Shown: positions 9,886 to 42,235 of the stretch, in pieces
How positions within the stretch are numbered: the stretch's first letter is position 1
How the letters are laid out: every line of letters starts with the position of its first letter
Source: Octopus vulgaris
Taxonomy: Eukaryota
Assembly (NCBI GenBank): GCA_951406725.2
Contig: OX597817.1
Span: 38,316,001-38,380,000, forward strand
DNA length: 64,000 nucleotides
Direction of reading: 5' to 3'
Made by a program: the position numbers and the translations under genes
The notes under the pieces: generated by a model
The model's database searches: none
Told to the model about the DNA's origin: nothing
What the model saw: the letters and a program-made list of their open reading frames with translations, nothing else

Positions 9886-10109
9886 AACTACATTCAATGT
9901 ATTAGCGTTCACATGTGTATGCATGTATGTATGTATATATATATATATATATATATAACATAAGGGACTAAAGCCATCTGAATATGGCTAGGGACAGGGC
10001 AGGGTGGTGGGGGTGTTACTGTTGCATTTAGCCCCAGGCGAACATCGACGTCACCAGAAAGGCTCGACACCGTCACGGTGCCCTTAACCTGCAAAGGGAG
10101 GTAATTCCC

Positions 10110-10191
10110 CGATGAAGCGGAAACCACACACGGACCATGGTTTCAAGGTGTATTGCCTATCGTCGGCGTGTGGTAGGCTTCCGCTTCCTCG
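10110..10191 (-). ncRNA. Extended type I hammerhead ribozyme, copy 1
   Basis: Minus strand: cgaggaagcggaagcc-UAC-cacacg CCGACGA uagg caauaca ccuu GAA ACCAUGGU C cgugug-u-gguuuccgcuucaucg. Stem I is 6 bp + internal loop + 12 bp. Stem III is palindromic. GUC site with predicted cut between 10133 and 10132. Confidence 0.78.
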
Positions 10192-10469
10192 ACGAATTCT
10201 CACTCTGCAGGATATTCATATATAGATTTTCAAGCAAAATACATTTGCTGATTTCGAAAATCTGTTCGAAAGCAATAATAATTCTCTAAAAGAGATATAG
10301 ACAGTAACTGCTCGATAACATAAGGGACTAAAGCCATCTGAATATGGCTAGGGACAGGGCAGGGTGGTGGGGGTGTTACTGTTGCATTTAGCCCCAGGCG
10401 AACATCGACGTCACCAGAAAGGCTCGACACCGTCACGGTGCCCTTAACCTGCAAAGGGAGGTAATTCCC

Positions 10470-10551
10470 CGATGAAGCGGAAACCACACACGGACCATGG
10501 TTTCAAGGTGTATTGCCTATCGTCGGCGTGTGGTAGGCTTCCGCTTCCTCG
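10470..10551 (-). ncRNA. Extended type I hammerhead ribozyme, copy 2
   Basis: Identical to 10110-10191 shifted by 360. Predicted cut between 10493 and 10492. Confidence 0.78.
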
Positions 10552-10679
10552 ACGAATTCTCACTCTGCAGGATATTCATATATAGATTTTCAAGCAAAAT
10601 ACATTTGCTGATTTCATATATATATATATATATAGTACGTTTAAATATTTGTTGTGCAAGATTTTATATTATATATATG

Positions 10680-11365: not shown

Positions 11366-11740
11366 CCTTCTACTATAGGCACAAAGCCTGAAATTTGACG
11401 GGAGGGGGCCATTCGATTAGATCAATTCCAGTACGCAACTGGTACTTAATTTATTGACCCCGAAAGGATGAAAGGTAAAGTCGACCCCGGCAGAATTTTA
11501 ACTCAGAACGTAGCAAAGGGGGAAATACTGCTAAGCGTTTCGCCCGGCGTGCTAGCGATTCTTTTCTACTATAGGCACAAGGCCTGAAATTTGGGGGGAG
11601 GGGGCCAGTCGATTAGATCAACCCCAGTACGCAACTGGTACTTAATTTATCGACCCCGAAAGGATGACAGGCAAAGTCGACCTCGGCGGAATTTGAACTC
11701 AGAACGTAGCGGCATCAGAAATACCGCTAAGCTCGCCGCC
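11366..11740 (-). mobile_element. Two tandem partial SINE family A copies
   Basis: ctactataggcacaa.gcctgaaattt...aactcagaacgtagc repeated with a period of ~197 bp. Confidence 0.8.
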
Positions 11741-15712: not shown

Positions 15713-16219
15713 CTATATATATTAAACTAAACTTTCAAACTCATACACAAATTCAAACACATTCATAAATTTAGGGGTTTAGGGTTAGGGTTAGGGTTAA
15801 GGTTTTATAGTTAGAATTAGGGTTAGGGTTGGGGTTTTAGGGTTAGAGTTATGGAAAAAAATGAAAAAGCTGAAGTTGTGTATGGCAGGTTTGGTAGCCT
15901 TCAACTAACACTATCTCCTCCGAGACCCTGCGGTGCAAGTTGACCAAAATTGAGAGTATGATAGAAGAAAGCTTCTAATTCAAATCGGACCATGTTAACA
16001 CTAAAAATTATTTACACCAAAAAGGTGCTTTTTTTCTATGAAAATACCTATTTTTTTACGATTTTTTGACTGCTGCGTCGCCATTTTCGGTGTATTTCAA
16101 CCAGAAAACTGTTCACTTAAAGAGAATATCAAGCTACATAATGCGAAATTTTTACTTTTCAAAAATTCCAATTCTAAAGTGTCGAAACAAACCCGAACAA
16201 CGCCGGGCGATACTGCTAG
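15713..16219 (+). mobile_element. Non-autonomous Helitron-like element containing degenerate TTAGGG repeats
   Basis: 3' hairpin cccgaacaacgccggg ends ~8 nt before CTAG|T (16216-16220). Degenerate (TTAGGG)n at 15771-15850. The 5' boundary is approximate. Confidence 0.65.
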
Positions 16220-41984: not shown

Positions 41985-42235
41985 TAGTATTAATTAATAG
42001 TAGAAGATGGATTTCGTATTAGACTTTTATCAGATACAACACATGTTTCGACCCATCAGTCTGGGTCTCTTCAGGTACATTGATAAAGAAGTCTCACGAG
42101 AGATTTTTAATGTCGGCTGACTTGCTGTTATATGCCCATCAAGTTCGAGAATGAATAAAAACAAAATATATGATAGAAATGCAAAAAAAAAAAAATCAAA
42201 TATGAGCATAGAAAGCATACGTTCAAGTTTAGATA
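41985..42235 (-). mobile_element. ~250-bp HHR-bearing repeat, copy 2
   Basis: Direct repeat of 40697-40932, abutting (GT)n. Confidence 0.75.
42034..42078 (-). ncRNA. Canonical-core minimal type I hammerhead ribozyme
   Basis: Minus strand: guac CUGAAGA gaccca gacuga uggguc GAA ACAUGUGU U guau. Perfect 6-bp stem II, GUU site. Confidence 0.75.

Follow-up and report, generated by a model that had tools for sequence, protein, structure and literature searches.

How did a non-coding 360-bp sequence come to lie in nearly two tandem units within a (TA)n tract of the Octopus vulgaris genome, and from what template was it copied? The repeat sits in a 64,000-nucleotide stretch of contig OX597817.1 (38,316,001–38,380,000, here called the window), where a sequence-only reading had proposed a retrozyme with a hammerhead ribozyme in each unit. 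We consider it likely that the locus is a 5′-truncated member of a young 360-bp family that codes for no protein, has two fixed ends and is predicted to form a hammerhead in each unit—a non-LTR retrozyme copied in trans by the reverse transcriptase-endonuclease of a Penelope-like element (PLE), probably from a one-unit RNA circle. The observations behind this are the repeat itself, its family, the fixed ends and their pairing, target duplications, haplotype sharing and structural covariation.

Positions 9955–10255 and 10315–10615 are identical, a 301-bp duplication with a period of 360 and a span of 1.836 units (Table 1). The description of 1.84 identical units in a (TA)n tract is therefore accurate, with (TA)n on both sides, as is that of a non-coding unit: the longest ATG-started frames in the tandem unit are 50 aa (plus strand) and 35 aa (minus strand), and there is no protein-coding frame. 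The TATA-like motif is possibly an internal promoter. Other classes of element were considered and rejected. A tRNA-derived SINE, with its tRNA-like head and simple-repeat 3′ tail, does not fit tandem, circularly permuted units, and a tRNA scan found no tRNA gene in the locus. An autonomous PLE would carry a frame with reverse transcriptase (RT) and GIY-YIG domains; the unit has none, and tblastn of a 781-aa PLE protein against the window gave no match. Plant LTR retrozymes have LTRs, a type III hammerhead and 4-bp target duplications, whereas this family has tandem units, a type I fold and 11–13-bp duplications.

Table 1. Coordinates of features in and around the repeat (window positions).
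Feature	Position	Strand	Remarks
(TA)n-rich left flank, insertion target	9926..9956	.	
Full 360-bp unit, GC 46%	9957..10316	-	Low end 9957: fixed 3′ end of the RNA without tail (T0), a putative RT start site
Type I hammerhead, core CCGACGA (U4C), palindromic stem III	10124..10173	-	Predicted cut 10133/10132
Predicted 360-nt cleavage monomer, branched rod	10133..10492	-	Extended stem I brings 5′ and 3′ ends together
TATA-like motif, unpaired stretch	10215..10225	-	Similar in 6/6 subfamily representatives (alignment)
Internal copy of the ~46-nt 'tail', unit 315–360	10271..10316	-	Between fixed start sites T0 and T46
Second unit, identical to the first	10317..10615	-	Ends at unit position 299, the variable RNA 5′ end
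Second hammerhead copy	10484..10533	-	Predicted cut 10493/10492
(TA)n right flank	10616..10634	.	

Elsewhere in the window, a 196-bp unit is present in 1.9 tandem copies (11368–11732), which we take to resemble an abundant octopus SINE. A short TTAGGG telomere-like run lies within the chromosome arm (15779–15851). A further motif resembling a hammerhead, on the minus strand at ~42040–42090, bears no relation to the 360-bp family; its core is canonical, its stem II is 6 bp long and its stem III is palindromic.

Searching the 2.8-Gb genome (227 contigs) returned 195 matches at 40 of 789 candidate places, with full units 92–100% identical, and a 32-nt hammerhead word has 459 exact matches against none for its reversed control. 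The repeat is thus multicopy rather than single-copy on the genome-wide BLASTN comparison that the sequence-only reading had named, and the dispersed, near-identical copies uphold its suggestion of recent activity. We compiled 107 non-redundant loci. The first set numbers 59, namely the best genome-search matches together with exact-match loci from the listings for C1, C2 and part of C3; a second set adds 48. Because loci were picked as best BLAST matches or exact hammerhead matches, long young copies are favoured. They hold 0.7–11.8 units each and fall into subfamilies A1 (79 loci, including the one described here) and A2 (28 loci). An older family, B, has a ~352-bp unit, 62% identity to A and 2,621 candidates; the tail (unit 315–360) is the most conserved stretch between the two. 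A degenerate tail motif has 3,159 genome matches, and 20 tail-variant loci join family B in a superfamily with units of 353–360 bp.

Some neighbours of these families deserve a record of their own. Family C consists of short fold-back insertions in (TA)n (755 candidates; L075:150–345 and L156–L175); their hammerhead is unrelated, although its core is likewise CCGACGA, and their two fixed ends lie ~70 nt apart. An association of families C and A was rejected: they adjoin in 2 of 20 loci, but (TA)n separates them, so shared targets explain the adjacency. At L253 (G000:C1:11168332–11169077), a minisatellite that arose from a retrozyme end has seven repeats of 119 bp, which combine a piece of the family-B tail with (TA)n. 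A heavily scrambled family-A copy (L042:4250–5200) has many short deletions filled by TA and could be an assembly or read artefact.

The architecture of the insertions points to how they were made. The RNA 3′ end lies at unit position ~1 (T0) or ~315 (T46), and 84 of the 107 loci are inverted head to head, an arrangement absent from the sequence-only reading. In 76 of these 84 (40/43 in the first set, 36/41 in the second) there is one end of each type, one outer end falling at unit position 1–8 and the other at 313–322. The exceptions are L069, with two T0 ends, and seven loci with one end elsewhere, two of them at position 13 (one fits the rule, one does not); no inverted locus has two T46 ends. 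L179 may likewise have two tail-less ends. Direct loci start at T0 or T46 in 21 of 23 cases; L031, although it is inverted and shows the usual two ends, is counted among them. Family B has 7 loci whose leading arm is inverted, of which 3 end where T0 falls in the alignment. The tailed arm showed no tendency to be the longer (24/40, P = 0.27), and a pile-up of arm ends at unit 300–360 in the first set (37/86) was not replicated in the second (9/78) and was dropped.

Nearly all insertion ends of the 107 loci lie in (TA)n, in keeping with the targeting proposed earlier. Target duplications are unreadable inside (TA)n; four insertions outside it (L007, L020, L047 and L055) have duplications of 11–13 bp. 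At three of these four the T0 end shares 3–5 bases with the target, and the T46 end shares at most one.

PLEs are described as leaving an inverted copy at the 5′ end and a 30–40-bp tail, often at one end only (PMC8557442, PMC3846280). In vitro, two internal RT start sites mark the limits of this tail, and the PLE protein, given AT-rich DNA, nicks each strand and extends it (PMC11167929). By analogy, the pairing of one T0 with one T46 end is the Penelope 'tail' signature. This alters one claim of the sequence-only reading, that the ends are arbitrary: only the 10615 end is, 9957 being one of the two fixed family ends. It had also held that fixed ends would speak against a retrozyme. Fixed ends there are, but they do not have that force, since two start sites ~46 nt apart are the Penelope signature. 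Its suggestion of Penelope-type mobilization is strengthened by the two fixed ends, the one-tail pairing, the head-to-head inversion and the AT-rich or microsatellite targets.

Candidate helpers are plentiful: intact 781-aa frames that combine an RT domain with GIY-YIG at the C-terminus are numerous in the genome. Among 55 GIY-YIG loci (of 6,136 candidates), none joins an autonomous PLE to the family's tail or hammerhead, nor does any of 20 tail-variant loci (of 3,159 tail matches) combine either with a PLE frame; as 55 loci are a small sample of 6,136 candidates, we do not conclude that the helper is absent. In one young PLE family of ~4.8 kb (L086–L102), intact 781-aa frames are common and another long frame lies upstream; repeats of 92–93 bp occur in its 3′ region, and its tail is ~40 nt long. 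A pattern search found no clear hammerhead in this family. Two inverted copies of this young autonomous PLE (L091 and L093) follow the same one-tail pattern with their own ~40-nt tail. L103:2312–5492 is a 5′-truncated autonomous-type PLE with 775-bp inverted terminal repeats; the hammerhead in its pLTR has C at core position 4 and a stem III that is palindromic. Both the young 781-aa family and the L103 family were rejected as the helper, having their own tails and no significant sequence in common with the unit. The one tail match in L103 proved to be a separate family-B insertion.

Each unit is predicted to fold on the minus strand as a type I hammerhead with a GUC site, the cuts falling after 10493 and after 10133. 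Strand, fold and cut sites agree with the sequence-only reading, as does the spacing of exactly one 360-nt unit; the non-canonical core and the need for a dimer fold escaped it. Instead of CUGANGA...GAAA...UH, the locus core reads CCGACGA, stem III of the locus subfamily has two pairs and a palindromic loop, and the G10.1–C11.1 closing pair, present in the L258/L262 subfamilies, is absent in families A and B. CCGACGA occurs in 332 of 399 family-A cores and canonical CUGA in one (cores counted over overlapping loci, hence not a copy count). A1 carries CCGACGA (U4C), and A2 mostly UUGACGA (U3 with G8). The search with hammerhead models that the earlier reading had recommended was negative: an Rfam scan at E ≤ 10 returned no hammerhead, its matches being only microsatellite-driven miRNA. 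A core-like word on the plus strand lacks stem II and a stem I partner; we rejected it as a hammerhead and took it for the rod's antisense echo. For the monomer bounded by the cuts, the predicted energy is −123.4 kcal/mol (z −5.15; 0 of 100 shuffles as stable), and its predicted minimum-energy fold is without an active hammerhead.

Covariation bears on whether the motif matters. Across the superfamily, stem III has five different sequences, all palindromes, and the 3–8 pair is either C3–G8 or U3–A8. Six representatives, five of them 59–84% identical to family A, show compensatory changes at 25 of 90 consensus pairs, with a consensus energy of −76 on the hammerhead strand versus −65 on the opposite strand. 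Between families A and B, 98.6% of cells are paired and three pairs are compensatory; as two related groups, these offer few independent events. The stem III palindromes, the 3–8 covariation, the compensatory pairs and the better energy on the hammerhead strand together argue that the motif has been selected as RNA. The C4 core recurs in L251, a subfamily similar to B, and in four hammerhead families of the genome that have no relation to this one, including that of the L103 pLTR, which makes it a lineage trait rather than the decay of one family. Lunse et al. (2017) are said to have described PLE hammerhead variants that cleave as dimers, work that may contain earlier tests of C4 cores. A U4C change considerably lowers activity in vitro yet allows viroid infection (PMC3088659), and a two-pair palindromic stem III is the form requiring a second hammerhead (PMC4209133). 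From the C4 core and the two-pair stem III, cleavage is predicted to be slow and dimer-dependent. Among predicted frog retrozyme dimers, one of nine cleaved and eight did not (Li, Clavereau & Pollet 2026).

What served as template can be read from the variants. There are 25 haplotypes among the 50 first-set loci with at least three pieces, and subfamily- or locus-specific variants are nearly always common to all units of both arms; at L032, one locus-private change is in 6/6 units and in no other locus. Variants confined to a subset of units, a point against a circular template, number 23 in total. (Variant counts exclude the degraded L042 and L050, and private-variant counts omit positions within 6 nt of gaps or 4 nt of piece ends.) As a new variant starts in one unit, it can become fixed across an array and both arms only if a single unit is read again and again. 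Of 282 pieces, one has an indel at the cut site, and that is a long deletion. Shared haplotypes and the lack of a scar at the cut favour a circular template, lending new support to the earlier suggestion of reverse transcription round a circle. Clear haplotype mosaics, at 3 of the 107 loci (L067, L068 and L177), indicate that template switching or linear mosaic templates also occur. At L067:1919–2204, both arms of an A1 insertion change to A2 sequence at the inversion point, possibly an insertion into, or a template switch onto, a related element. L068:2995–7248 is an 11.8-unit insertion and a mosaic of at least three haplotypes.

The strongest competing account, which we judge unlikely, keeps the PLE and dispenses with the circle: young, homogeneous arrays would be transcribed into a linear multimer that serves as template without being cleaved, and in this subfamily the hammerhead would be weak or vestigial. 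The non-canonical cores of both young subfamilies (CCGACGA and UUGACGA) suit it, as do the three mosaic arrays, the presence of the start sites in every unit and the finding that hammerhead mutations leave insertion by PLE protein in vitro unaffected, so that the activity is dispensable there (PMC11167929). It is opposed by the many haplotypes, each of them uniform in every unit of the two arms, for a linear route alone cannot spread a one-unit variant array-wide, and by the stem III palindromes and 3–8 pair that covary across the superfamily.

Cleaved linear monomers might instead be templates, the enzyme jumping from one to the next. Template switching does occur, L067 and L177 mixing two subfamilies, but such jumping should scar the cut, where the one indel is a long deletion, and should produce haplotype mixing far above the three clear cases; nor are arm ends in excess at the cut (1/164 against 2.3 expected). 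We regard this route as very improbable. No more credible is a satellite or minisatellite with its origin in the terminal repeat of a PLE and local growth through unequal crossover, a scenario discussed by Li et al. (2026): the units are indeed head to tail, and the 119-bp derivative array at L253 looks locally amplified, yet family-A arrays are short and dispersed on many chromosomes, with fixed ends, target duplications and head-to-head inversions that carry the same haplotype in both arms. An assembly artefact of a single-copy sequence, as two identical copies between microsatellite flanks might suggest, is practically excluded by hundreds of copies with locus-specific variants and a consistent architecture, in arrays of up to 11.8 units.

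The mutation spectrum adds a further clue to the copied strand. Among insertion-wide variants, 15 of 30 are A>G on the hammerhead strand and five are U>C, compared with 14 A>G among 213 unit-private variants (Fisher P = 2 × 10−8); C>U and G>A together show the reverse, with 86/213 private and 2/30 insertion-wide. The strand bias of A>G has P = 0.008. Polarity is doubtful in three A>G calls (109, 125 and 223), and sites 108 and 157 recur in both subfamilies. The A>G enrichment on the hammerhead strand suggests that the RNA that was copied is the minus strand, and perhaps that it was edited A-to-I. A-to-I editing is very high in octopus (PMC5625713), and we find the case for edits inherited in insertions about evenly balanced. 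The 5′-G depletion of ADAR is not seen (5′ G at 5 of 12 A>G sites, against 23 of 88 in the background), which counts against editing; selection for wobble pairs could contribute to the A>G excess.

For a retrozyme copied from a circle, transcription, cleavage, ligation, the circle and the identity of the helper are steps that we infer, and they might run as follows. The minus strand of a multi-unit locus would be transcribed, two hammerheads would pair via the palindromic stem III and cut slowly, and the 360-nt monomer would then be ligated to a circle. A PLE protein would nick both strands of an AT-rich or (TA)n site ~11–13 bp apart, one cDNA being primed at T46 and the other at T0 of the same RNA. 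Each enzyme would circle the RNA for a variable distance, and the two cDNAs would join head to head; where a single arm formed or survived, the product would be a direct partial tandem such as 9957–10615. In a bolder version, which we offer tentatively and think somewhat improbable, the family would preserve in the genome how the Penelope reaction proceeds on a circular RNA. The two target nicks would be primed by the paired active sites of a single PLE dimer, each at its own fixed site, the sites lying 46 nt from each other on one 360-nt circle that is read for up to ~10 rounds; edits from A to I made on the circle and fixed in every unit would mean that host editing drives the element's evolution; and a deliberately slowed C4 hammerhead, common to unrelated octopus families, would protect the circle.

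The helper and the circular intermediate of animal retrozymes have so far only been proposed, and the origin of Penelope tails and inverted ends is still debated. This family is young enough for each insertion to record its start sites, one per end, along with single-haplotype arms and an unscarred cut site. The 360-nt RNA and an intact PLE protein of the same genome would make a small in vitro system for rolling-circle, twin-primed reverse transcription.

The family's closest counterparts are the metazoan non-LTR retrozymes, whose RNAs have been shown to cleave and circularize (Cervera & de la Peña 2020, PMC7229834). All sequence-level features of a non-LTR retrozyme are found in the locus family. 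The elements of PMC7229834 have tandem units of 150–450 bp with GC below 50% (here 360 bp and 46%, dispersed), a type I hammerhead per unit and no ORF (both shared, with a core non-canonical at position 4), and target duplications above 4 bp (here 11–13 bp); a PLE helper and a circular template are proposed there too. For the octopus family, cleavage and circularization are predictions. The main text of that paper contains neither 'inverted' nor 'cephalopod', and we know of no fixed start sites, tail pairing or C4 cores described there. In the literature on octopus hammerheads and retrozymes, leaving aside Repbase, subscription papers and some supplements, we found no description of this family, nor of such end and haplotype patterns in work on retrozymes with twin priming or editing; the main text of the 2026 Octopus vulgaris repeat annotation does not mention ribozymes.

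For vertebrates, an active retrozyme has been defined as two units in succession that carry a hammerhead motif (Li, Clavereau & Pollet 2026, bioRxiv 10.64898/2026.07.22.740005), and by its layout the locus fits. That study, which sampled no mollusc, argues for a PLE origin from pLTR homology and co-occurrence and leaves the mechanism open; its evidence is phylogenetic, ours comes from insertion ends. No pLTR homologue was found for the octopus family among the loci examined, and its footprint is PLE-like. With dimeric type I hammerheads (PMC4209133, PMC3088659) the family shares a short palindromic helix III, an extra base after A9 and the natural U3–A8 covariant; unlike them, the locus subfamily has C at position 4 and is without G10.1–C11.1.

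Endonuclease-bearing PLEs (PMC3846280, PMC8557442, PMC11167929) resemble the octopus family in their head-to-head inverted copies, microsatellite bias and two internal RT start sites. Their tail is 30–40 bp and often at one end only, compared with ~46 nt here, and their target duplications are 8–10 bp, compared with 11–13 bp. The one-tail rule is near-strict in octopus (76/84) and optional or frequent in those papers, which also describe PLEs acting in trans on pLTRs and non-autonomous multi-copy derivatives in Chlamys such as MRC1. The octopus family differs further in having no ORF and in arms that can both be many units long. The family is genuine and young, a probable new addition to the known class of non-LTR retrozymes, and offers unusually clear genomic evidence for copying that is Penelope-driven and probably circle-templated.
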